Assembly (NCBI GenBank): GCA_902778895.1
Contig: CACYZF010000010.1
Span: 71,785 to 135,784, forward strand
DNA from: an uncultured bacterium
GTDB lineage: Bacteria > Verrucomicrobiota > Lentisphaeria > Victivallales > UBA1829
Direction of reading: 5' to 3'
DNA length: 64,000 nucleotides
Both the position numbers and the translations under genes were made by a program. The notes below the pieces were generated by a model. It was not told the origin of the DNA. It searched no databases and saw nothing but the letters and a program-made list of their open reading frames with translations. Shown here piece after piece: positions 2,743-37,708 of the stretch. Position 1 is the stretch's first letter. Each line of letters begins with the position of its first letter.

Positions 2743-3747
2743 CTATTTCGAGGCGGGCGCGGTAACGGGTTCCAGCGTCACGGTGGCCTGGGCGGGGATC
2801 ACCTCGACCACCTTGATGCGGTCGTTGTCCGACCAGCATTTGATATCGACGGTATAGACGCCCGGACGCGTCACGTCCGAGAGGTCGAGGAACGGATGGA
2901 TCTGCGTCTGGGAGATGTCGGGCACGCTGTCGACCAGGACGGTCACGGATTCGGGCTGGATTTTCGAAATGATGAGGTTGTTCGCGCCGGTCCTGCCGAA
3001 GAGGACCTGAACGGGAATGCCGTCGAAGGCGCGCGGCTTGTTCTTCTCGACCTTCACTTCGACCTTCACCTTGCCGGACAGGATCTCAATGTTCCTGCCG
3101 TACGGCGAGACCGGGTCGACCTGGCGCGAGAAGCTTTTCGTGACATTCGCCAGCGGGATCTTCTCCGTTTCGAGATACTCGATGGTGTCGAGGAGCTTTT
3201 TCGGGCCGCGGATCGTAACCGGTCTTTCCGGCTGGATCAGCGATGCCTGATAACCCTCCATCACCTCGGCGGAATCACTGACGGGGTGGACCGGGACGTC
3301 CTTCGTATCCATGATGTCGATGTTCAGCGGGATCATGTCGGGATTGACGGCCAGCACGTGCAGTTCGTCGAACACGATGTTCGACCGCACCATGTCCAGA
3401 CGGAGCTCGACGGGCATATCCGTCTCGACCTGATATTTCGTCACGGGGCATTCGAGGTAGAAATCCGTGTTTTTCAGCGTCTTCTGTTCCTTGGGAACCT
3501 CCAGCGTGATGTCGGCGGACACGTCGCGCGGGATGAGCGTGACGCCTTCCTCAAGAGGCACGAAGCGGATCGGCACGTTCCGGATGTTGACCCGAACCAG
3601 CTCCATCCGCGATTTCACGTTCTGGTACGCGTACCAGGTCAGCAGACAGGCGAAGATCAGCGCAAAGACTTTACGCCAGAAATCGTGCCGGATGACATAC
3701 GGAATGTGCGGCAGGACTTTCTTCCAGAAATCGCGGACCGAGCTCAT
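2743..3747 (-). CDS. cdaR: YbbR-domain protein, probable CdaA regulator (CdaR)
   Basis: N-terminal TM anchor followed by repeated beta-rich YbbR-like modules. Start overlaps the cdaA stop by 4 nt (3744-3747), the canonical cdaA-cdaR arrangement. Confidence 0.7.
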   Translation of the reverse strand: MSSVRDFWKKVLPHIPYVIRHDFWRKVFALIFACLLTWYAYQNVKSRMELVRVNIRNVPIRFVPLEEGVTLIPRDVSADITLEVPKEQKTLKNTDFYLECPVTKYQVETDMPVELRLDMVRSNIVFDELHVLAVNPDMIPLNIDIMDTKDVPVHPVSDSAEVMEGYQASLIQPERPVTIRGPKKLLDTIEYLETEKIPLANVTKSFSRQVDPVSPYGRNIEILSGKVKVEVKVEKNKPRAFDGIPVQVLFGRTGANNLIISKIQPESVTVLVDSVPDISQTQIHPFLDLSDVTRPGVYTVDIKCWSDNDRIKVVEVIPAQATVTLEPVTAPASK

Positions 3748-4598
3748 GCTTCACCGTCCTTTCCGGCCTCGGCCGCCTCGTCCGTCTTCAGTTCCAGCTC
3801 GGATGCCTTGCCGAGACGTTTCCACGGCGCTTTCTTCCGTTCCAGCAGGATCGTACTGAGCTGGAACCGGAGTTCCTCCGTGTTCAGACCGCGAACCAGA
3901 CGGCCTTTTTTCGCCAGGCTGATCAGTCCGGTCTCCTCGGAAACGACCACCGCAACGGCGTCGGTCTCCTGCGAGATGCCGACCGCGGCGCGATGACGCG
4001 TGCCGAGGCGTTTTCCGTTCACGAAATAATCTTCTTCCGCCAGCGGCAGCACGGCATGGGCGGCCACGATGCGGTTGTTCTTCCCGATGACCACGGCGCA
4101 GTCGTGAAGCGGCGAGTTCGGGTAGAAAAGAGACTGGAGCAGCAGGGAATCCACGCGGGCGTCCAGCGAAACCGCCGACCGCGTGGTGTCCGTGAGACCG
4201 ATATTGCGTTCGAACACGATGATCGCGCCGGTCCGCGTAATGGAAAGCTGCGCGGCGGCTTCGGTCACCTGGTCGATCGTTTCCTGTCCGGTCCGGTTCG
4301 ATACGAACAGACTGCCCGCCTGCGCGAACGCACGCCGGAATTCCGGCTGGAAGATCACGAGGATGGCGATGCCGAGGGACGGGATCAGGCATTCGATGAG
4401 CAGGAACCGCAGCACGGTCAGACGTTCCACGTAGTCGACCGCGATCGTGGCGGTCAGCAGGACCGCGATCACGCCGAAAAGCACGTTGGCGCTGCGGGTG
4501 CCGCGCAGGAAATACAGGACCCAGTAGATCATCGCCCAGATGATCACGAAGTCGACGGAATAGAAAAGATATTTGACGATGACGTCCTGATTCGGCAT
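3744..4598 (-). CDS. cdaA: diadenylate cyclase CdaA (c-di-AMP synthase)
   Basis: Three N-terminal TM helices plus a DAC domain: GAIIVFERN, LHDCAVVI, GTRHRAAVGISQETDAVAVVVSEETG. Confidence 0.9.
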   Translation of the reverse strand: MPNQDVIVKYLFYSVDFVIIWAMIYWVLYFLRGTRSANVLFGVIAVLLTATIAVDYVERLTVLRFLLIECLIPSLGIAILVIFQPEFRRAFAQAGSLFVSNRTGQETIDQVTEAAAQLSITRTGAIIVFERNIGLTDTTRSAVSLDARVDSLLLQSLFYPNSPLHDCAVVIGKNNRIVAAHAVLPLAEEDYFVNGKRLGTRHRAAVGISQETDAVAVVVSEETGLISLAKKGRLVRGLNTEELRFQLSTILLERKKAPWKRLGKASELELKTDEAAEAGKDGEA

Positions 4599-18923: not shown

Positions 18924-21626
18924 TTACAGCACGATCTCGAACTCGGAGACGGCCGGGCCGGGTTTCGCCGCGTCGCTCGGAGCGAACGTGACGCGGTAGA
19001 AAAGCCCCTCGAACTTGCCGTCCATGGGGATGACTTTCTCCTTGAAGGTCCCCTTGAACTCGCCGACCGGAGTCCAGGATTCCTGGTCCAGCGAGCAGTC
19101 CACCTTGAACGCGTATTCCGCTTCGGAGTTGAAGACGATGCGGATGCTCTTCGGCTTGATGATGCGCTCGGCGGAGACCGTCAGGAAGCACTTGTCGCCG
19201 GACGCGGCCTGATAGAACGTCTCGGGGCGGCCGTCGACGGCGCAGATGGCGGAGTGTCCGGGGACGGATTCCGAGGCGAGCGTGGGCTTGTCCAGCGCCA
19301 TGTTCAGCGGCTTGTCGATCGGTTTCGTGCCGATGAGTTCGCCCGTGAATTTGACGTACGGACGGCTCTCGATGACCGGGGTTTTGCCGGGGATGAATCC
19401 GAGACCGCGCGTGGAGGTGATCTCGACGCGGGAGGATTCGAGGCCGGGCGACGTCGCCTCGATGACGGTGGTCCCGCTGTAGTAGGAACGGAAGTCGATG
19501 GAGCACTTGCCGTCGCGGATGGCTATGTCGGAGTCGTTTCTGAACGTGATGGAGCGTCCTGTGGGGAATTCGCCGGGGCCGGAGACCACGCGGAGCGTCA
19601 CCTCCGGAGAATTGCTGAGTTCCTTCCCCTCGGCATTGACGATCGTGGCGATCAGCTGAACGTCGTCGGTGCCGTCGGCAAACATGGAGTTCTTGTCGGA
19701 GGTCAGGACGACCTTCGCCGGGGTCCCCTCGACCGGCCATTCCGGGTGTTTCACACCGCCGAACACCTCGCGGTAGTAGTACCAGCGGCGTTTGGGCAGG
19801 CGGAAATAGTCCATGACGCCCATCCAGCCGAATCGGCCGCCCATGCTGCCGTGGTCGATGCCGCACCAGATGACCTCGCCGCTGCGCCAGTCGTATTCCT
19901 TTTTTCCGGTGATGTGGCTGACGGATTCGTAGCCGGCGTCGAACTTGCCGGGCCGGACCTCCATGGCGGAGCCGACCGCGCCGTATTCGCTGACCACGTT
20001 CGGCAGGCCGGGGTTCTGGTATTCGCGGATATACTCGCCGTCGCCGTTGTACCCGGCGATGTCGCTGCAATGGTCCACCTGCCCGCGCTGCGCGCCGCCG
20101 ACCGCCGCCAGACGGGTCGGGTCTGCCTCATGCGCGATCTTCGTGAGACGGCGCAGGAAATCGCGCACTTTCGGCATCACGCGCCCGTCGGAGAAGAAAA
20201 CCTCGTTGCAGAGGCTCCAGCACACGATGGACGGGTGGTTGCGGTTGATGCGGATCATGTCGCGCAGGCTGCGGATCACGGATTCCTCGAACGGGATCTG
20301 GTCGGCCTCCTCCACGGGATACGCGCTCGCGCCGCCCCAGATCGTCGGGCCGCCCATGCCGGTCGTGCCCCAGAAGCAGTTTTCGCTCCAGAACATCATG
20401 CCGATGCGGTCGCAGGCGTCCGCGAATGCCGGATGGTGCGGATAGTGGCAGCCGCGGATGAAATCGAATCCGGCCTCCTTCATGTAGCGCACATCGCGCT
20501 CGAATCCGGCGTGGCTGACGGCGTCGCCCCAGCCTGCGCGGTCCTGATGCACGTTCGCACCGTGGAAATACCGGTTCTTTCCGTTGAGGAAGAAACCCTT
20601 GTCGGCAGTCCATTTGACCGTGCGGAATCCGAAGTTATCGGAGTAACGGTCGTAGAAGAGCGAGGTCTTCGCGTCGACCACGGTGGTCTCGGCGCGGTAC
20701 AGGTTCGGCGTCTCGGGCGACCACCATTTGGCGTCCTTCACCTGCGGCGTGACGATCTCGACCTCCATGAGGGCATTCGGTGTCAGCGCAATGCCGTTTT
20801 TCGACGCCTGCGCCACGAGGTTGCCCTCCGGGTCATAGATGCTGGTCGCCACGTTGATCGTGCGCGCCTCGCCGGACTGGTTGCGGATTTCGCTGACCAC
20901 ACAGACGGACGTGTCGCCCTCTTCGAGTTTCGGCGTGGTAATCGCCATGCCATACCACGCCACATGGACGTCCCGCTTCACGACGAGCGAGACGTCTCGG
21001 TAGATGCCGCCGGAGAACGTGTGTTCGCCCGCGCGCGGAGCCAGGCGCGGATTCCAGTTGTTGTTCACGCGCACGGCGATGATGTTATCGCCGTTGACCA
21101 TCTGATCGGTAAAGTCGACCTCGAATCCGGTATAGCCGCCCTCGTGATGCCCGGCGAGCTTGCCGTTCACATACACGTCCGCGACCTGAAAGACGCCTTT
21201 GAAGTCCAGATAATACCGGTATTTCTTGTCCTCCTCGGCAACGACCTGTCCGTCTTTGATGACGAAATCCACGTTCGAGATATGGATTTTCTTCCGATAC
21301 CAGCCGTCGCCGGTATAGAAACGGTCAGAGAGAAAATACGGCAGACTGAACGAGTGCGGGATATGGGCGAGCTCCCACTTGCTGTCGTCGAGGTCGACCG
21401 CCTGTCCGTTCTCGACTGAGCCGAGCTTGAATTTCCATTCCGCGTTGAGGTTGGAAACCACCCGGCCGGAAAGCGGCGGCTTCTTGCCGGCCGCAACAAA
21501 AGGCAGATCCGCACCGACGGCCTGCGCGTTCGCCTGAGCGGCGCCGAGGATCATGATTCCGGCGCAGAGGACCGCACCGATGCAATGACGATGAAACAGT
21601 TTCATTTGATAAATCCTTTTCAGCAT
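18924..21626 (-). CDS. secreted glycoside hydrolase family 2 with C-terminal discoidin-like (F5/8 type C) domain
   Basis: Signal peptide (ILGAAQANA). WKFKLG...DDSKWELAHIPHSF, GGIYRDVSL, GANVHQDRAGWG, NFIRGCHYPHHP, NRNHPSIVCWSLCNE; the last ~140 aa look like a galactose-binding-like domain. Confidence 0.85.
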   Translation of the reverse strand: MLKRIYQMKLFHRHCIGAVLCAGIMILGAAQANAQAVGADLPFVAAGKKPPLSGRVVSNLNAEWKFKLGSVENGQAVDLDDSKWELAHIPHSFSLPYFLSDRFYTGDGWYRKKIHISNVDFVIKDGQVVAEEDKKYRYYLDFKGVFQVADVYVNGKLAGHHEGGYTGFEVDFTDQMVNGDNIIAVRVNNNWNPRLAPRAGEHTFSGGIYRDVSLVVKRDVHVAWYGMAITTPKLEEGDTSVCVVSEIRNQSGEARTINVATSIYDPEGNLVAQASKNGIALTPNALMEVEIVTPQVKDAKWWSPETPNLYRAETTVVDAKTSLFYDRYSDNFGFRTVKWTADKGFFLNGKNRYFHGANVHQDRAGWGDAVSHAGFERDVRYMKEAGFDFIRGCHYPHHPAFADACDRIGMMFWSENCFWGTTGMGGPTIWGGASAYPVEEADQIPFEESVIRSLRDMIRINRNHPSIVCWSLCNEVFFSDGRVMPKVRDFLRRLTKIAHEADPTRLAAVGGAQRGQVDHCSDIAGYNGDGEYIREYQNPGLPNVVSEYGAVGSAMEVRPGKFDAGYESVSHITGKKEYDWRSGEVIWCGIDHGSMGGRFGWMGVMDYFRLPKRRWYYYREVFGGVKHPEWPVEGTPAKVVLTSDKNSMFADGTDDVQLIATIVNAEGKELSNSPEVTLRVVSGPGEFPTGRSITFRNDSDIAIRDGKCSIDFRSYYSGTTVIEATSPGLESSRVEITSTRGLGFIPGKTPVIESRPYVKFTGELIGTKPIDKPLNMALDKPTLASESVPGHSAICAVDGRPETFYQAASGDKCFLTVSAERIIKPKSIRIVFNSEAEYAFKVDCSLDQESWTPVGEFKGTFKEKVIPMDGKFEGLFYRVTFAPSDAAKPGPAVSEFEIVL

Positions 21627-21683
21627 TCTCCGGTCGGCCTCAAGCGCCTCCCGGAACCGTTATTGTTCATGTGTTCGCATGAT

Positions 21684-21712
21684 ACAATACTTGACCGACA
21701 GCAGAAAAGCAA
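21684..21712 (-). promoter_or_regulatory. sigma70-type promoter for the GH2 gene at 18924-21626
   Basis: Minus strand reads TTGCTT-N17-TATTGT, ~55 nt upstream of the ATG at 21626. Confidence 0.45.
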
Positions 21713-21795
21713 ATATCTTTCCCTCGCTTTTCAGGTAAAAACGGCCAATTTCACGCCCTTTTTCACATCCAGGACGTTAATCATAACGTTTGCGG

Positions 21796-22021
21796 AAATA
21801 AAAAAAGGCATAAGCGGAACGGTCCCGTGCCATGCATTCCCCCCTTTACCCGCCATCACCGGAGAACCGTTTCCCCCCGAAAACGGTCATCCGGCCCCCT
21901 TGACGGCGGATTTCAACGCATGGCAAAGCGCGGATCGTTCATCCTGTCCCGGGATTCCCCCGATTCCGTGATTCCCGGGCCAGGACCGCTTATGCCGGAG
22001 AAGAGGATCGCTCCCCCTCAC
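21796..22021 (-). ncRNA. candidate structured small RNA, family not recognised
   Basis: Predicted promoter at 22028-22056. 11-bp closing helix (21986-21996 with 21807-21817) followed by UUUUUUUAUUU. A 96-nt irregular hairpin (21829-21924) with 7+11+5+7 bp. Further hairpins at ~21943-21974 and ~21997-22017. Several G.U pairs exist only in the minus-strand reading. No credible ORF. Confidence 0.45.
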
Positions 22022-22027
22022 GGTGTT

Positions 22028-22056
22028 ACTATACCATGCATCCCGGCGCGAAGCAA
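22028..22056 (-). promoter_or_regulatory. sigma70-type promoter (extended -10) for the candidate sRNA
   Basis: Minus strand reads TTGCTT-N17-TATAGT with TGg immediately upstream of the -10. Confidence 0.5.
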
Positions 22057-22077
22057 ACACGAAAACACCGCCGGATG

Positions 22078-22113
22078 AAAGAAAAAAGGTCCCCCGGCAT
22101 ACTTTTTCCGGGG
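22078..22113 (-). terminator. second (weaker) terminator downstream of the repeat-protein gene
   Basis: CCCCGG-10 nt-CCGGGG, a 4-nt spacer, then UUUUUUCUUU on the minus strand. Confidence 0.4.
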
Positions 22114-22161
22114 TGGTCAAGTTTGGTGTACAAGTTTCACCGCCGCCGGCGCATCCGCGGC

Positions 22162-22202
22162 AAAAAAGAAAAACCGCACCCGGAAACGGTCTCCGGATGC
22201 GG
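22162..22202 (-). terminator. rho-independent terminator of the repeat-protein gene
   Basis: Minus strand reads CCGCAUCCGGA-gaccguu-UCCGGGUGCGG (11 bp including one G.U), followed by UUUUUCUUUUUU. Confidence 0.8.
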
Positions 22203-22248
22203 CATGGTTCGTTTTTGAGTTCGCCCGGTCGGTTCGGGCGGGATCCGC

Positions 22249-23289
22249 TCATTTCGGCATGAGGAATCCCGGAACCGGGATCTGCTGGCCCTGATACATG
22301 TTCATGTACTGTGCGAAGAGCAGATAGGCGATGAAGCAGACGCAGATGAGCGTGAGGATGGAAAGCGTGAGGAAGAACCAGTTCGGTTCGTCGGCGGACG
22401 TGACCGGATCCTTCTGCTTTTTCACCTTCGGCAGTTTGCCTTTTTTCTTCTTGTCCTCGGGCACGGCTTCCGGCACGGGGGTCGGGGTCTCGACCGGAGC
22501 GGCGACCGGGGGCTGTTCCACCAGCGTCGCCTCGACATCCTTCTTCTCTTCCGGCTTCTGCGCCTGAGGCGGCATGTTCGGGATTTTCAGGCCGGGGATG
22601 ATGTTCTTCGGGAGTTCCTTCGGCTGGGACGGCTGGTTTTTCAGCTTCAGCGTGAGCTTGCGTTCCGGCGGAATCGGAGACTCGCCGACCTTCTTGATGG
22701 TCGGGGCGGAGGCGGGGGAAGCTTCCTGTTCGGGCTTCTTCAGCTGGACGGTCGGGGTCGAAGATTCCGGCTTCTTCAGCTGGATCGTCGAAGTCGAGGA
22801 TTCCGGCTTCTTCAGCTGGATCGTCGAACCGGACGAGGATTCCGGTTTCTTCAGCTGGACGGTCGGGGTCGAGGATTCCGGCTTCTTCAGCTGGATCGTG
22901 GCAGGGGAAGCGGCCGGAGCGGATTCCACCGGATTTGCGGTCGGAATGCCGGTCGGGGTTTCCGCGGCTTTCGGCACGATCTTGATCGCCGGTTTCACTT
23001 CGGTCGCCGGACCGGATTCGACCGTCGAGGGTGTCGGCGGACGGAGACGGATGGTCTGCTTGACGCCGGGGACGACCGAGGCGGGCGACGGTGTGATATG
23101 GATCGCGGGTTCCGCCTGTGCGGCGGCATCGGCCGTGGCATCAGCGGCGGCTCCGGCAGGCGCGGCGGCATCGGCCGCAGGCGTGGGCGGAGTCATCGGT
23201 TTGAGTTTGATCGTAGCGCGCGGACGAACGTCCTCGGGGGTGTTCATCGGGGTATCGGAAGTCGGATCTGCCATGGCTGTTTCCTTCAA
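22249..23289 (-). CDS. tail-anchored, Pro/Ser/Thr/Ala-rich disordered repeat protein (unknown function)
   Basis: No signal peptide. ~300 aa of low complexity with ~10 degenerate xIxLKxP motifs, including 5 tandem QLKKPESSxxTx units. A polybasic stretch KKKKGKLPKVKKQK, then a single C-terminal TM (WFFLTLSILTLICVCFIAYLLF). Own promoter and terminator. Confidence 0.7.
   Translation of the reverse strand: MKETAMADPTSDTPMNTPEDVRPRATIKLKPMTPPTPAADAAAPAGAAADATADAAAQAEPAIHITPSPASVVPGVKQTIRLRPPTPSTVESGPATEVKPAIKIVPKAAETPTGIPTANPVESAPAASPATIQLKKPESSTPTVQLKKPESSSGSTIQLKKPESSTSTIQLKKPESSTPTVQLKKPEQEASPASAPTIKKVGESPIPPERKLTLKLKNQPSQPKELPKNIIPGLKIPNMPPQAQKPEEKKDVEATLVEQPPVAAPVETPTPVPEAVPEDKKKKGKLPKVKKQKDPVTSADEPNWFFLTLSILTLICVCFIAYLLFAQYMNMYQGQQIPVPGFLMPK
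22735..22900 (-). repeat. in-frame 36/39-nt tandem repeat (~4.6 copies) encoding QLKKPESS(T/S)xT(V/I)
   Basis: cttcttcagctgg recurs at 22735, 22771, 22807, 22846 (one mismatch) and 22882, giving periods of 36, 36, 39 and 36 nt. Confidence 0.9.
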
Positions 23290-34021: not shown

Positions 34022-37000
34022 TTATTTTCCGCTGCCGCCTTTTTCCTCCGGTTGTTTCACATCCGGGAGAAGAAGGCCGAAGGCGGCCATGGTCTCGGCC
34101 TGATGGATCACGGTACCTTCATTCATTTCAATGGCAAAGATCGTGTCGACGAAACAGTAAAGGGGCGGAGTTTTATCCCGTGCCGGGAAAAGTGTAGCGG
34201 TATAATTGTATTCCCTGCCTCTGTTGTCCGGGCCCTGTGCCTGCATTCCCCGGACAGAGAATCCGGTGGGATTGAACCGGCTGTTGTGAAGCGGGGCATG
34301 GATGCTGTTGGAGCCAAGCCCGACGATCCAGCAGAGATTCAGAGGGTTGCATCCGAGCGTATTATCCGCGGTCTTGATCATGGCTTCGCGGTATGCTTTG
34401 ACCTTGAGTTTATTGTCCGTAAATGCCCAGGCGTGCCAGACGACGGTGAGGAAGTGTTCGTAAGCGCCTGTACCCCAGTTGATCGGCGCATAGGGATGCC
34501 GGACGAACTTGTAGGGGGCTTTGTTTGATTCACTGATATACATGTCGGCTTCATCGCAGATGGTGCGGAGCACATCGGAATGAATCGTGGGATCTGACTT
34601 AGGCGGCAGAACTGCGGCATAGGCATAAGCCGCCAGCGTAAGATCGTAATTATCGTCCACCATCTTTGCCTTCGGATTCTTTTTCCACGGCGTATTGTCA
34701 AAAAAAGCCTGGTGATAAGCTTCTTCCCCCGTAGTATGGAAAAGCTGGGCTGCCGCATAGGCAAGCGGCGCGGTATAGAATGAGGCGAATGTTTTCGCGT
34801 TATTAGTCTGCGGCTTGTTCTTCAAGGCCCAGTCATAGGCACGTCGGGCACGGGCAAGGTAATCGGCGGCCATATCCTTCTTTCCAATGTTTTTGAGAAG
34901 GCGGGAGGCTTGCGCCATGGCTCCCGCAAAAAGGAATGACCCGCAACTATCCTTGGCAAAGACGAAATCGCCTTTCGGATCAAGTTCGACCGACTGGAAG
35001 AAGTTCGGGTCGCCGTCGGATTCCGTGCCGTTGTAAACGCCGCCATCCTCGTCCTGAAGCCCGATCCAGAGCTTCAGCGCCCAGAGCGCCTCGTCAAGAA
35101 TGTCCGGGATGCCGTTGCCTTTTTCCGGAATATTAAGCTGTCCATCGTAGAATTTCTTTGGCGCCACCTCATATGCGTCCATCAGGATCTGTGCGACATC
35201 GATATGCGAACGCGGGTTGTAGTCGCCTGCATCGTGGTGTCCGCCGGACGCCGTAAGAATCTTCGGCACGACGGCCTCAATCCGTTCGGAGAGTTTCGCG
35301 ATTTCCTCGACAGAGAGAACACGGTTATAAATACGGAATTCATCGAAATAGCATCCCTCCGCACCGATGTTCGTGACAGCACCGATCGTGATTTCATCCC
35401 CCGGAGAAAACTTGTCGGAAGTGGATGCTGCCTTCAGGAGTTTGCCGTCGCGATATACACGGCACATCCACTGGCCGGAAGCGGAGTCCGGGCCGATCGA
35501 GACGGTGTAACTGTGCCAAAGATCATCGCCGAACCGCCCGCCCGAATAGATTGTCGTGCCGTTGAATTGATAATACGGTACGCCCCAGCCACAATAGAAC
35601 CGGAAGGAATTGGATTTCCCTGACCGGAGGGCCAGCACATCGCCATCGAACTGGTTTCCCTTCGGCGCATCGGTACGCTGCAACCAGAAGTGGAACGTGA
35701 TTCCCTTCGACTTGTCATAGTCTATTTTTCCCGTCCAGCCGTTGTCCCGGCCGGATTTCGTCTCGAACACACGATTGGATTCCCCATCCCAGATCAGATT
35801 CGGCAACTTTTTGAAGGATTGAGCTGTCCCGTTCGACGGAGAAAGCGTCATGCCGCCCGGAACAGTATTCGCGGCGGAACCGTTGAACGGGAAATGCGCA
35901 ATAAGCCCGGGACCGGCATAAACAGAAGGAAGGTTGTTTACATCAAGGGAAGAATTCTTCTCGAAAATGGCTTTTTTCGCGTTAATATGAGCGTCGTCCC
36001 CGTCAATCCGCCGCTGCGTGGTCAGTTGAATCCCGTGATTGTGACAGGCGATACGGCGCCAATCCGAATACGGCGGCTCCAGCGCGATCCCGCACCGCTG
36101 GGCGAAAATACCGTATGCGGCGGTCTGAAACGCCTCGCCGTAAATATCGGACGCGATGGAAAATTCGAAGCTGCGTCCGGTGCCGGGGACCACGATATAA
36201 TAACGGCCCGGTGTCTTGAACGACGTAAAGTCAATCTCGTAGACGTTCTCTCCGGAATACTGGCTCCGCCCCTCCGAACGGTTTCCCGGATTGGAAAGGA
36301 CACTCTGTCCGGAAAAAACGACCTCATCCGTACGGGCATCCCGGATCTCGAACGACGGCGGAGTATCGTATTTGAGCGCGCGTTTCGAAAAATCATGCGC
36401 CGCGGCGGATACGATTCCCGATCTGACCGATTCCGCCTTGTCCGTTTTGGCCGGATCGGCTTTATCCCGGGAGGAATCCTTGTCCTTATCGTCTTTATCG
36501 TCCTTTTCGTCTTTATCGTCCTTTTCACCTTTGGCCCCTCCGAAGAATATCTCATCCGTGGAAATGTCGCGGAAATGCTCCTTTTCCGTGGATGTCGCCA
36601 GAATCGCGGCCTCGTCCGGGAAGGAACCGAGCCAGCGCCCGATTTCCGCCGTCTTGACCGCGGTAGTGATGTAGCCGACCTGATTGACCTTGATCGCGCT
36701 GGAATACGACTGTTTGCCGGAAAACACGATCTCAGCCGAATTTGCACCGGAAACAATGGCAGGATCGACCTCGACACGGAGCCGGTCCCCCTCCTTGAGC
36801 ACACGGTCCATCTGCAGGAAGACCTCATGCTGCAGGATGACGGAATACGGCCAGCCGGTCGGACGGTACAGATCGATCTGACTGCGGCGGCCCATGGCCT
36901 TGATCGCGGCGGATTCGCCATTCACCGTGACATGATAATGCTTGAGCAGATATCCCTCCTGACAGAAAAAGGTCGGACCGAATTCCAGACGGATGATGCC

Positions 37001-37615
37001 GTTGCCTACGCTGTCCAGTCCGCGGAGCCCCAGTACCGTCAGGGTCCTGAGCTCAGGCTGTCTCCTGATATCCGGAGCATTCGCGATATCGGCAGGATCG
37101 AACCGGAACTCGTAGGCGGCACGTCCGGCGGATACCACTTCGGTACCGCTTCCGTGCGTGACGACCGCATAGGTTTTGCCGGGCTGCATCGGCGCATGCA
37201 ACTTCAGATCGACCATTTCCCGCCTGAATTCGGAAATATTGGCCGCCTGGGATGCGGCTTTGAATCCATCCGGCACGGAGACCTCCACAACGCTGTGATT
37301 CTTCGGGAAAGACACGTCGGAGGGAAGAACAAACTTTTCATAGGCGTATTCCGGATCATCCTCACTGACGATACGGTATGCGCCAAGCTCCAGGAACGGG
37401 CTGGAGTTAGACGCCATGCCGATTTCGACCCGAATGACGTCGGCAGCGACGGGATATGCCTTTCGCACCCCCATCACCGTCATCACGAACGGTTTCTTGT
37501 CCGGTGCGGCAATCAGAACAGGATCGGCATCCAGTGCATATGCCGATGCCCCCCCGGCAAAAAACATACACACAAGGGCAAAGGCGGGAAGAACAGGATG
37601 AAATCTTCCAGTCAT
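34022..37615 (-). CDS. secreted glycoside hydrolase family 9 with N-terminal accessory region, Ig-like (CelD_N) module and a LamG-like domain inserted in the catalytic domain
   Basis: Start set at Met 37615 (SD AGGAG; signal peptide LVCMFFAGGASAYA) because a consensus promoter lies at 37709-37737 inside the longer ORF. IKVNQVGY (CelD_N); GH9 blocks FAQRCG...ACHN, GGHHDAGDYNPRS, GNGIPDILDEALWALK. LamG_3-like segment FPFNGSA...FHFWL...WHSYTVS...RVYRDGKL...FDEFRIYNRVLS lies between them. Confidence 0.8.
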   Translation of the reverse strand: MTGRFHPVLPAFALVCMFFAGGASAYALDADPVLIAAPDKKPFVMTVMGVRKAYPVAADVIRVEIGMASNSSPFLELGAYRIVSEDDPEYAYEKFVLPSDVSFPKNHSVVEVSVPDGFKAASQAANISEFRREMVDLKLHAPMQPGKTYAVVTHGSGTEVVSAGRAAYEFRFDPADIANAPDIRRQPELRTLTVLGLRGLDSVGNGIIRLEFGPTFFCQEGYLLKHYHVTVNGESAAIKAMGRRSQIDLYRPTGWPYSVILQHEVFLQMDRVLKEGDRLRVEVDPAIVSGANSAEIVFSGKQSYSSAIKVNQVGYITTAVKTAEIGRWLGSFPDEAAILATSTEKEHFRDISTDEIFFGGAKGEKDDKDEKDDKDDKDKDSSRDKADPAKTDKAESVRSGIVSAAAHDFSKRALKYDTPPSFEIRDARTDEVVFSGQSVLSNPGNRSEGRSQYSGENVYEIDFTSFKTPGRYYIVVPGTGRSFEFSIASDIYGEAFQTAAYGIFAQRCGIALEPPYSDWRRIACHNHGIQLTTQRRIDGDDAHINAKKAIFEKNSSLDVNNLPSVYAGPGLIAHFPFNGSAANTVPGGMTLSPSNGTAQSFKKLPNLIWDGESNRVFETKSGRDNGWTGKIDYDKSKGITFHFWLQRTDAPKGNQFDGDVLALRSGKSNSFRFYCGWGVPYYQFNGTTIYSGGRFGDDLWHSYTVSIGPDSASGQWMCRVYRDGKLLKAASTSDKFSPGDEITIGAVTNIGAEGCYFDEFRIYNRVLSVEEIAKLSERIEAVVPKILTASGGHHDAGDYNPRSHIDVAQILMDAYEVAPKKFYDGQLNIPEKGNGIPDILDEALWALKLWIGLQDEDGGVYNGTESDGDPNFFQSVELDPKGDFVFAKDSCGSFLFAGAMAQASRLLKNIGKKDMAADYLARARRAYDWALKNKPQTNNAKTFASFYTAPLAYAAAQLFHTTGEEAYHQAFFDNTPWKKNPKAKMVDDNYDLTLAAYAYAAVLPPKSDPTIHSDVLRTICDEADMYISESNKAPYKFVRHPYAPINWGTGAYEHFLTVVWHAWAFTDNKLKVKAYREAMIKTADNTLGCNPLNLCWIVGLGSNSIHAPLHNSRFNPTGFSVRGMQAQGPDNRGREYNYTATLFPARDKTPPLYCFVDTIFAIEMNEGTVIHQAETMAAFGLLLPDVKQPEEKGGSGK

Positions 37616-37708
37616 AACACGTCTCCTAAATAATGTATTTTGCGTTTCCGCCGACCTGCATAAGGACAGACAACGGAAGCGATTCGCATGTTTTTGAATT
37701 ACGACAAT

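Follow-up and report, generated by a model that had tools for sequence, protein, structure and literature searches.

A candidate small RNA family with conserved G-tracts, encoded beside a glycoside hydrolase gene in rumen Lentisphaeria

What is encoded in the gap between a repeat-protein gene (stop codon at 22249) and a glycoside hydrolase family 2 (GH2) gene on the minus strand of a 64,000-nucleotide stretch of contig CACYZF010000010.1, from an uncultured member of the Lentisphaeria? This whole stretch, called the window below, had been read once before from its letters, and that sequence-only reading had proposed that the gap holds a self-contained, strand-specific, structured RNA, about 225 nt long, that has a promoter and a terminator of its own and lies outside the common families. 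Our analysis supports this proposal, with expression and termination as predictions. The RNA, which we place at about 222 nt (from ~22021 to ~21800), appears to represent a solid new RNA family that, as far as we searched, is restricted to a group of rumen Lentisphaeria; it does not yet amount to a new mechanism. With a probability that we put only a little above even, we read the locus as an independently transcribed, lineage-specific small non-coding RNA (sRNA) gene of a new family, whose product would act in trans through runs of guanines (G-tracts) that serve as docking sites. Lentisphaerota are abundant, almost uncultured polysaccharide degraders of rumen and gut, and apart from the candidate Acido-Lenti-1 motif we found no regulatory RNA described for them.

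Read along the minus strand, the gap contains, in this order, a terminator, a tandem repeat, a spacer with A/T tracts, a promoter, a self-complementary sequence of about 222 nt, a closing helix with a U-run, a region of ACGT boxes, a second promoter, and the GH2 start (Table 1). The self-complementary sequence is predicted to fold into a 5' hairpin (P1) followed by a three-way junction of helices P2, P3, and P4, in which P2 is the long-range closing helix of 10-11 bp. The stem of P3 comprises 6 + 5 bp around a 1x1 mismatch; a 7-bp CCCGGGA/UCCCGGG hairpin had been described earlier, and it exists but is only the inner part of P3, which continues with GUCCUG/CAGGAU. A 96-nt irregular hairpin had likewise been seen and is real as part of the longer rod P4 (21940-21819). 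The positions given for the minus-strand promoter, the closing helix, the T-run, and the GH2 promoter were correct on re-reading, and two GGAUGA motifs that had been pointed out are present, although they lie in stems and are not conserved. The minimum free energy of the minus-strand sequence (236 nt) was -120.4 kcal/mol, compared with -94.4 +/- 4.7 kcal/mol for dinucleotide shuffles (z = -5.5), and none of 200 shuffles was as good.

Homologues were sought on the contigs of GH2 orthologues and by pattern scans of GTDB species genomes and of metagenomes. Sixteen distinct RNA homologues were obtained, with Infernal scores of 184-281 bits from a covariance model built from the first twelve of them, and their records are Lentisphaeria/Victivallales metagenome-assembled genomes (MAGs), RUG MAGs (cattle, goat, sheep, and yak rumen), or rumen-type metagenome contigs. 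Further pattern matches from the genome scan (Elusimicrobia, Caulobacter, Streptomyces, and so on) proved unrelated to the RNA, and the metagenome scan with the short pattern TCACGGAATCNGGGGA returned mostly chance matches, with one new homologue, L122, among the matches listed. When folded individually, all 16 homologues gave the same P1-P4 architecture. In alignments that included the flanks, they formed an island of conservation bounded exactly by the -35 box, where identity climbs, and the T-run, after which it collapses; the flanks are diverged or bear indels, and the intergenic DNA around the RNA can barely be aligned. The identity of the RNA to the window copy was 74-90%, and that at four-fold degenerate sites of the neighbouring GH2 gene was 66-81%, the third positions of this genome being themselves constrained by codon bias (GC content at third codon positions, GC3, ~0.84).

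Compensatory changes support the predicted helices. In the model-based alignment, 92.4% of 1415 pair cells held standard pairs, compared with 40-51% when the 3' partners were slid by 1-3 columns, and in both this and a structure-blind alignment made with MAFFT about 92-93% of the pair cells were paired, versus 40-55% in the slid controls. Changes on both sides of a pair were found at 20 pairs of the model-based alignment (10.7 +/- 2.0 after shuffling, with none of 500 shuffles as high, and 5-10 in the slid controls). The corresponding figure for the MAFFT alignment was 12 pairs (7.7 +/- 1.8 after shuffling; 11 of 500 as high), with a covariation score of 0.125 versus 0.111 (1 of 500); this signal is weaker partly because MAFFT puts the paired indels of the palindromic P3 core (CCCGGG) in the wrong place. 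Within P4, both sides had changed at 15 of 50 pairs on alignment A5 (helices 4-7) and at 10 of 47 on the MAFFT alignment A7 (helices 5-8). Examples are the P4a variants CGAUCC/GGAUCG, CGGUCC/GGACCG, and CGAACC/GGUUCG, and the replacement of GCC/GGC by GUC/GAC in P4b. In P3, homologue L122 shows U-A to A-U and C-G to A-U changes, and L007, L166, and L175 show C-G to G-C changes or paired indels. The helices are thus kept with compensatory changes, at 12-20 pairs depending on the alignment, and we regard the fold as well supported and the covariation as real but modest, since the sequences share as much as 74-90% identity with the window copy.

Other parts of the RNA essentially never vary, namely P2, the outer stem of P3, the loops, and the P4e hairpin. 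Of the ten counted P2 pairs, nine never vary on the alignments and one shows a single change from G-C to G.U, so that covariation is uninformative for this helix; the P3 loop is invariant save for one G-to-A change in L006. Such invariance says nothing on pairing, yet it implies constraint on the sequence itself. The P2 helix and the run of at least five Ts behind it are invariant in all homologues, with a U-run of U7-8, and we infer that together they end transcription and give rise to a discrete, stable sRNA. The loop of P1 is kept as a GNRA class, being GCGA in 14 sequences, GUGA in L031, and GAGA in L035, and the register of the P1 stem can slip because a purine strand pairs with a pyrimidine strand. 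One metagenome contig (L176:61-288) is otherwise equal to L175 and has the 5' strand of P1 replaced by an unrelated sequence (UAAAAGG instead of AGAGGGG), about 60 nt from the contig end; this may be either an assembly artefact or a natural variant without P1.

Which strand is the RNA, and is the element an RNA at all? Since the plus strand also folds better than its shuffles (z = -5.2), stability alone cannot decide the strand. The strand specificity that the sequence-only reading had deduced from G.U pairs was borne out across the 16 homologues, with 149 G.U and 39 A.C cells among the pairs, and 92.8% of cells were paired when the minus strand was taken as RNA, versus 84.6% for the opposite strand. 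The G.U excess over A.C, together with the orientation of the promoter and the terminator, establishes the minus strand as that of the RNA. Indels inside the element are almost all of 1-2 nt and are found throughout it; no reading frame is therefore conserved, which marks the element as non-coding. A protein-coding reading was rejected on the same grounds, and a short AUG-started open reading frame (ORF) on the RNA strand is not kept in the homologues.

The good fold of the plus strand could nevertheless be taken to mean that the locus is no RNA gene, and instead a palindromic element acting at the DNA level (for instance a recombination site or what remains of a mobile element) or a small coding region that was annotated wrongly. 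Such a reading would also accommodate the clean presence or absence of the whole unit relative to locus L010, described below, and the ORFs of 135-150 aa that gene callers placed across the element in two metagenome records. It has to contend, however, with the strong strand asymmetry of G.U over A.C, with a conserved promoter and terminator that bracket the element exactly, with frame-breaking indels throughout, and, the P2 helix aside, with the lack of terminal inverted repeats and of target-site duplications. Each locus carries one copy of the RNA, no second copy was found in the window or in the other fetched loci, and the pair pattern of the G-tracts had no match in a viral contig collection. 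We find this explanation barely credible. A repeat, a miniature inverted-repeat transposable element, or another multi-copy element was rejected on the same copy numbers, and retron, bridge-RNA, and omega-RNA were rejected as well, since at none of the loci does the element have a gene for a reverse transcriptase, a recombinase, or a nuclease next to it.

Comparison with known families returned no relative. Rfam 15, run with cmscan, gave no match at gathering thresholds in the whole window, and in the region 21600-22300 at E <= 10 with permissive filters the matches were at chance level (sroE with 16 bits at a threshold of 51, Methylosinus-1 with 10 bits at a threshold of 145; E of ~1-8). In this region, 6S, signal recognition particle (SRP), RNase P, and tmRNA models had no match at E <= 10; ARAGORN found no tRNA or tmRNA, and Rfam returned nothing over the RNA in four homologous loci. 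The Acido-Lenti-1 RNA motif (RF01687), a candidate structured non-coding RNA of unknown function from Lentisphaerae (Weinberg et al. 2010, PMC2864571), matched neither the window at E <= 10 nor the homologues at E <= 1, and we therefore take it to be a different RNA. Beyond this motif, nothing relevant was found in the literature on sRNAs of Lentisphaerae, on sRNAs with G-rich loops, or on CsrA in Lentisphaerae. SRP RNA had been considered because ffh lies in the window, and was rejected in the absence of an SRP match (RF00169 or RF01854) at gathering thresholds in the window or at E <= 10 in the region. The Ffh (SRP54) gene itself occupies 58646-60106 on the plus strand, and no SRP RNA match was found anywhere in the 64 kb.

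These searches bear on the idea that the RNA is a diverged housekeeping RNA of a ribonucleoprotein, for example a 6S-like RNA binding RNA polymerase, that has drifted past the Rfam models. The length of about 220 nt, the strong, constitutive-looking promoter, the closing helix near the ends, and the long, imperfect rod are superficially 6S-like, and no 6S, SRP, or RNase P RNA was seen in the 64-kb window, which would place these elsewhere in the genome or leave them undetected. Against this stand the lack of any family match even at E <= 10 with permissive filters, including 6S (RF00013), and an architecture of a three-way junction with an extra 5' GNRA hairpin in place of a rod with a large central bubble resembling an open promoter. 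In addition, the RNA is found only beside GH2 orthologues of at least 81% identity and is absent at that site in the nearest relatives, and so narrow and locus-bound a distribution would be odd for a housekeeping gene. A housekeeping origin seems to us very improbable.

The region upstream of the RNA has the appearance of a dedicated promoter. The promoter hexamers (TTGCTT and TGGTATAGT) are near-invariant across the 16 homologues over a variable spacer, and the combination of TTGC with an extended -10 element (TTGC-N-TGnTAwwnT) matched only once in the 64-kb window, at the promoter of the RNA. Promoter spacing alone places the transcription start site at ~22021. The tandem repeat is unique within the window and is kept at all 16 homologue loci, including L006, L040, and L174, where the upstream genes differ; its distance to the -35 box is 82-84 nt at every one of the 16 loci, despite variable sequence in between. 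Taken together, these features describe a strong, near-consensus, and apparently regulated promoter.

Two terminators had been placed upstream of this promoter by the sequence-only reading. The first was confirmed, and it belongs to the repeat-protein gene. The second (22078-22113) corresponds to a CCCCGG/CCGGGG hairpin that forms in the window copy of the spacer, where the terminator scan made no call; no hairpin was consistently predicted for 22057-22111 across the homologues. Since the hairpin is unconserved, but the A5/T5/T4 tracts and the spacing of 82-84 nt are conserved, the proposed second terminator is better read as promoter-upstream architecture: the segment 22057-22137 is probably a regulated, bent promoter-upstream region with a candidate transcription-factor site. 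The gene upstream of the first terminator (22249-23274, minus strand) codes for a protein of low sequence complexity in which Pro, Thr, and Lys abound; this protein carries some five (T/S)(I/V)QLKKPES repeats and, at its C-terminus, a transmembrane helix, matches no Pfam family, and is 70-83% conserved in relatives.

How is the RNA related to the GH2 gene that follows it? The start codon of GH2 is the ATG at 21605, which gives the protein version on record in public assemblies, and not position 21626 as had been assumed. The GH2 protein is encoded on a 259-kb scaffold from a rumen-type metagenome. Its orthologues show a graded identity from 97% down to 73%, followed by a drop to 56%. The next gene downstream of the RNA, read in the same direction, is the same GH2 orthologue (at least 81% identity) at each of the 16 loci, in three upstream contexts: a CNNM gene with the repeat protein, a CelD_N gene (L006), and HydF-MFS genes (L040). 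Upstream of the GH2 orthologues with 79% (L010), 75% (L168), and 73% (L173) identity, the RNA is absent at that site. At locus L010, the GH2 promoter and the ACGT-box region are present, but the module is missing in its entirety, tandem repeat and terminator included. Close relatives differ by up to ~200 nt in the length of the spacer that separates the terminator from the GH2 regulatory region, and a locus-specific insert of ~200 nt lies 3' of the RNA terminator in L045 (2792-2985), L003, and L028 and, in part, in L039, L022, and L040; it was found neither in the window nor at other places in the fetched loci. A RelB-family gene in L007 and a RelB/YafQ toxin-antitoxin pair in L010 lie downstream of the respective GH2 orthologue.

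The constant arrangement could mean that the RNA is a cis-acting leader of GH2, riboswitch-like or an attenuator controlled by a protein, in which P2 and the U-run form a conditional terminator, and a sugar or a bound antiterminator would adjust GH2 expression through the degree of read-through. The RNA and GH2 remain neighbours in L006 and L040, where another gene lies upstream, the nucleotides of the junction and the loops are invariant as in an aptamer, and the GNRA loop suggests a compact tertiary fold. However, these two rearrangements are the only ones seen, and the probability that the linkage arose by chance is about 1 in 4. Conserved -35 and -10 boxes and operator-like ACGT boxes that belong to GH2 itself lie downstream of the terminator, L010 retains this regulatory region without the RNA, and orthologues of 79% identity or less lack the RNA. 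The spacer to the GH2 regulatory region is highly variable, as described above, the U-run is long and invariant, and no alternative, antiterminating partner was seen for either P2 strand, by manual inspection only and without a systematic search. We consider a leader unlikely; if GH2 transcription were nevertheless controlled by the RNA, the RNA would be a candidate for a riboregulator linked to carbohydrates, and such riboregulators are rare. Because GH2 keeps its own conserved promoter and L010 cleanly lacks the whole module, an independent sRNA gene is the preferable interpretation, and the module seems to behave as an independent gene that so far travels with GH2.

If the RNA is a gene of its own, how might it act? 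The most conspicuous feature is its G-tracts. Runs of at least five Gs are seldom seen in this genome, yet five of them fall within 232 nt, where 0.076 would be expected from the rest of the window (Poisson P ~2e-8). The sequence-only reading had counted four runs of G5-G6, all unpaired; the runs are real and mostly exposed, but they number five, the fifth (22017-22013) lies in the P1 stem, and the last two Gs of the terminal-loop run are paired. Four of the five tracts are thus displayed, in a hairpin loop, two bulges, and a terminal loop. The tracts are essentially invariant while the nearby stems vary: none of the 16 homologues has lost any of tracts 3-5, of which the one in the terminal loop never changes and the two in bulges differ by about one G. 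Inside the RNA, no C-run complementary to the tracts was found except the 3' strand of P1. Both the invariance and the statistical excess of the G-runs lend weight to the idea that these are functional, unpaired sites.

The features that call for explanation are therefore invariant G5-6 tracts on a stiff scaffold, the lack of an internal C-rich partner beyond P1, an invariant junction, and a strong promoter. According to the mechanism that we propose, the extended -10 promoter would drive transcription of the ~222-nt RNA, and the tandem repeat would be the binding site of a transcription factor that controls it. The RNA would act in trans via five conserved G5-6(A) tracts, four of them shown on a rigid scaffold, as repeated docking sites that titrate one partner. 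This partner could be an RNA-binding protein, much as in the Csr/Rsm sponges, or RNA segments rich in pyrimidines (UCCCCC-like), as a mirror image of the C-rich loops of RoxS/RsaE. Should the G-tracts be such docking sites, they would suggest that the Planctomycetes-Verrucomicrobia-Chlamydiae group has a hitherto undescribed post-transcriptional regulator, either a protein or an RNA, and the covariance model and the motif would offer a handle for finding it.

Several observations weigh against this trans-acting sRNA. The covariation is modest and alignment-dependent, the homologues coming from one narrow clade, and P2 and the loops, which never vary, are uninformative on pairing. The transcription start site, the 3' end, and termination are all deduced from the DNA sequence, and a terminator stem made by a long-range helix that encloses ~190 nt is unusual. 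The invariable position upstream of GH2 would also fit a role in cis. A Pfam scan of the ~45 ORFs of the window found no gene for an RNA-binding protein, including no CsrA in the 64 kb, and the G-tracts fit the CsrA consensus A(N)GGA only loosely. Finally, the 41 gene starts of the window show no enrichment of C5 runs in their vicinity (1 observed, ~1.9 expected); the sole instance, UCUCCCCCUU, lies 77 nt upstream of an MFS gene within the hydF coding sequence, at chance level.

Among known systems, the Csr/Rsm sponges (CsrB, CsrC, RsmX/Y/Z) are alike in being multi-helix sRNAs that have a promoter of their own together with an upstream activating sequence and an intrinsic terminator, the latter two being predictions here. 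They also repeat one short, purine-rich motif in exposed loops and act by multivalent titration of one partner, as proposed here; GGA closes four of the five G-tracts, and UCACGGAAU in the P3 loop is CANGGA-like. By manual count, GGA triplets number about 10 in ~222 nt, mildly above what the G-rich composition gives, and the conserved part is the G5-6 tracts. The differences are that the motif is G5-6 and not A(N)GGA in hexaloops, that it occurs at only 4-5 sites, that no Rfam Csr/Rsm model matches the RNA, and that the upstream element is a direct repeat (AAACTTG...) whereas theirs is the palindromic GacA box. RoxS/RsaE and the actinobacterial 6C RNA resemble our RNA in presenting several homopolymer-like seeds in the hairpin loops of a conserved scaffold and in having their own promoter and terminator. 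Their C-rich loops, however, pair with G-rich Shine-Dalgarno sequences, whereas the G-runs described here would need C- or U-rich targets, and C5 is not enriched near the start codons of the window; they are ~100 nt long versus ~222 nt, and there is no similarity in sequence or in Rfam.

The glycan-locus-associated sRNAs of Bacteroides, such as GibS, are encoded beside a glycoside hydrolase gene in gut polysaccharide degraders. Our locus shares with them the adjoining glycoside hydrolase gene and the host's life as a polysaccharide degrader of gut or rumen; it belongs to another phylum, has no sequence or structural relation to them, and lies in a window that is a mix of housekeeping genes and not a polysaccharide utilisation locus.

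The invariance that marks the G-tracts extends to the junction (P2 and the base of P3) and to the 21-nt P3 loop, with stems that vary, and the GNRA tetraloop is kept as a class. This pattern would also suit a stand-alone structured RNA with a conserved core for catalysis or for the binding of a small molecule or ion, or, as a variant, with G-tracts that assemble into an inter-loop G-quadruplex; such an RNA would not primarily be a sponge or a base-pairing regulator. The presence of four or more G-tracts of at least 5 nt speaks for the quadruplex; the P4 rod, backed by covariation, places the terminal-loop tract ~17 bp from the nearest bulge, which would make a four-tract quadruplex hard to form. 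As nothing points to a ligand and the narrow distribution is unusual for ribozymes and for riboswitch-type sensors, we hold such a function to be quite improbable.

The trans-acting sRNA would also allow a bolder version, which we offer as rather doubtful speculation. The design is unusual: G5-6 tracts recur on exposed loops, a GNRA tetraloop caps the 5' hairpin, and the closing helix is also the predicted terminator stem. It might define a new class of multivalent 'G-tract decoy' riboregulator, a GNRA-braced scaffold with four or five G5-6A tracts and the first riboregulator described in Lentisphaerota. Its tracts would capture a pyrimidine-specific partner for which no such control is known to date (a novel RNA-binding protein, C-rich sRNAs, or the CCUCC anti-Shine-Dalgarno tail of the 30S subunit) or would switch to an inter-loop G-quadruplex, and a dedicated transcription factor would bind the AAACTTG tandem repeat.

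Table 1 Features of the candidate sRNA gene and of its flanks, listed in the direction of predicted transcription. Positions are those of the window.
Feature	Position	Strand	Sequence	Remarks
Terminator of the repeat-protein gene	22203-22173 + T-run	minus		called by terminator scan
Tandem direct repeat	22112..22137	minus	AAACTTGTACACC-AAACTTGACCACC	layout AAACTTG-N6-AAACTTGACCACC; candidate activator or transcription-factor site
Promoter-upstream spacer	22057..22111	minus	A5 + T5-6 + T4 tracts	tracts in steps of ~20 nt; tracts and spacing conserved, sequence between them variable
Sigma-70-type promoter	22028..22056	minus	TTGCTT; TGG-TATAGT	-35 at 22056-22051; 17-nt spacer to -10 hexamer; extended -10 at 22036-22028
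P1, 5' hairpin	22000..22019	minus	GAGGGGGA / UCCUCUUC	GNRA tetraloop GCGA at 22011-22008; holds G-tract 1 (22017-22013); predicted in every homologue
P2, 5' strand	21986..21996	minus	GGCAUAAGCGG	closing helix of three-way junction; partner 21807-21817; GGCAUAAGCG(G) 21996-21986 with (C)CGCUUAUGCC 21817-21807
P3 hairpin	21941..21986	minus	outer GUCCUG/CAGGAU, inner CCCGG/CCGGG	~21-nt loop GAAUCACGGAAUCGGGGGAAU with G-tract 2 (21961-21957)
P4 irregular rod	21819..21940	minus		~50 bp; five segments, P4a-e; same helices predicted separately in 16 of 16 sequences
P4, 5' bulge	21899-21895 (G-tract 3)	minus	AAGGGGG (CAAGGGGG)	in all 16 homologues
P4, terminal loop	21878-21873 (G-tract 4)	minus	within UUUUCGGGGGGAAAC (UUUUC-GGGG-GGAAAC)	last two of six Gs paired
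P4, 3' bulge	21844-21839 (G-tract 5)	minus	AAGGGGGG (UACGGGGGG)	in all 16 homologues
P2, 3' strand, and U-run	21796..21817	minus	CCGCUUAUGCC + U7-A-U3	strand 21817-21807, then directly U-run 21806-21796; intrinsic-terminator-like 3' end
Palindrome of the ACGT-box region	21774..21789	minus	ACGTTA-N4-TAACGT	first of several ACGT boxes between RNA terminator and GH2 promoter; candidate GH2 operator; conserved at the loci compared, L010 included
GH2 promoter	21684..21712	minus	TTGCTT-N17-TATTGT	separate from the RNA; -35 TTGC and -10 TAT.GT conserved in all loci, retained in L010

Some observations were made away from the RNA. The pattern scan of genomes also brought up a conserved multi-copy element, ...GGCCGGGCATGGGGTTGCYCTG.AGCCGCTTTG.GGAAGGGGGCCCCGCTTCGGGGGGAACC..., in L012 (4430-4590), L014, and L041, all from the same Elusimicrobia MAG, in L018 and L034 from other Elusimicrobia, and in L027 from Aminicenantes. 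It has no Rfam family at gathering thresholds, is unrelated to the G-tract RNA, and may be an undescribed repeat or RNA. In the window itself, a cdaA (DAC domain)-ybbR pair lies at 2743-4598 on the minus strand. The gene at 34022-37927 (minus strand) encodes a 1301-aa protein with GH9, CelD_N, and Laminin_G_3 domains; its GC3 is 0.63, compared with ~0.83 in the rest of the window, and it may have been acquired horizontally.

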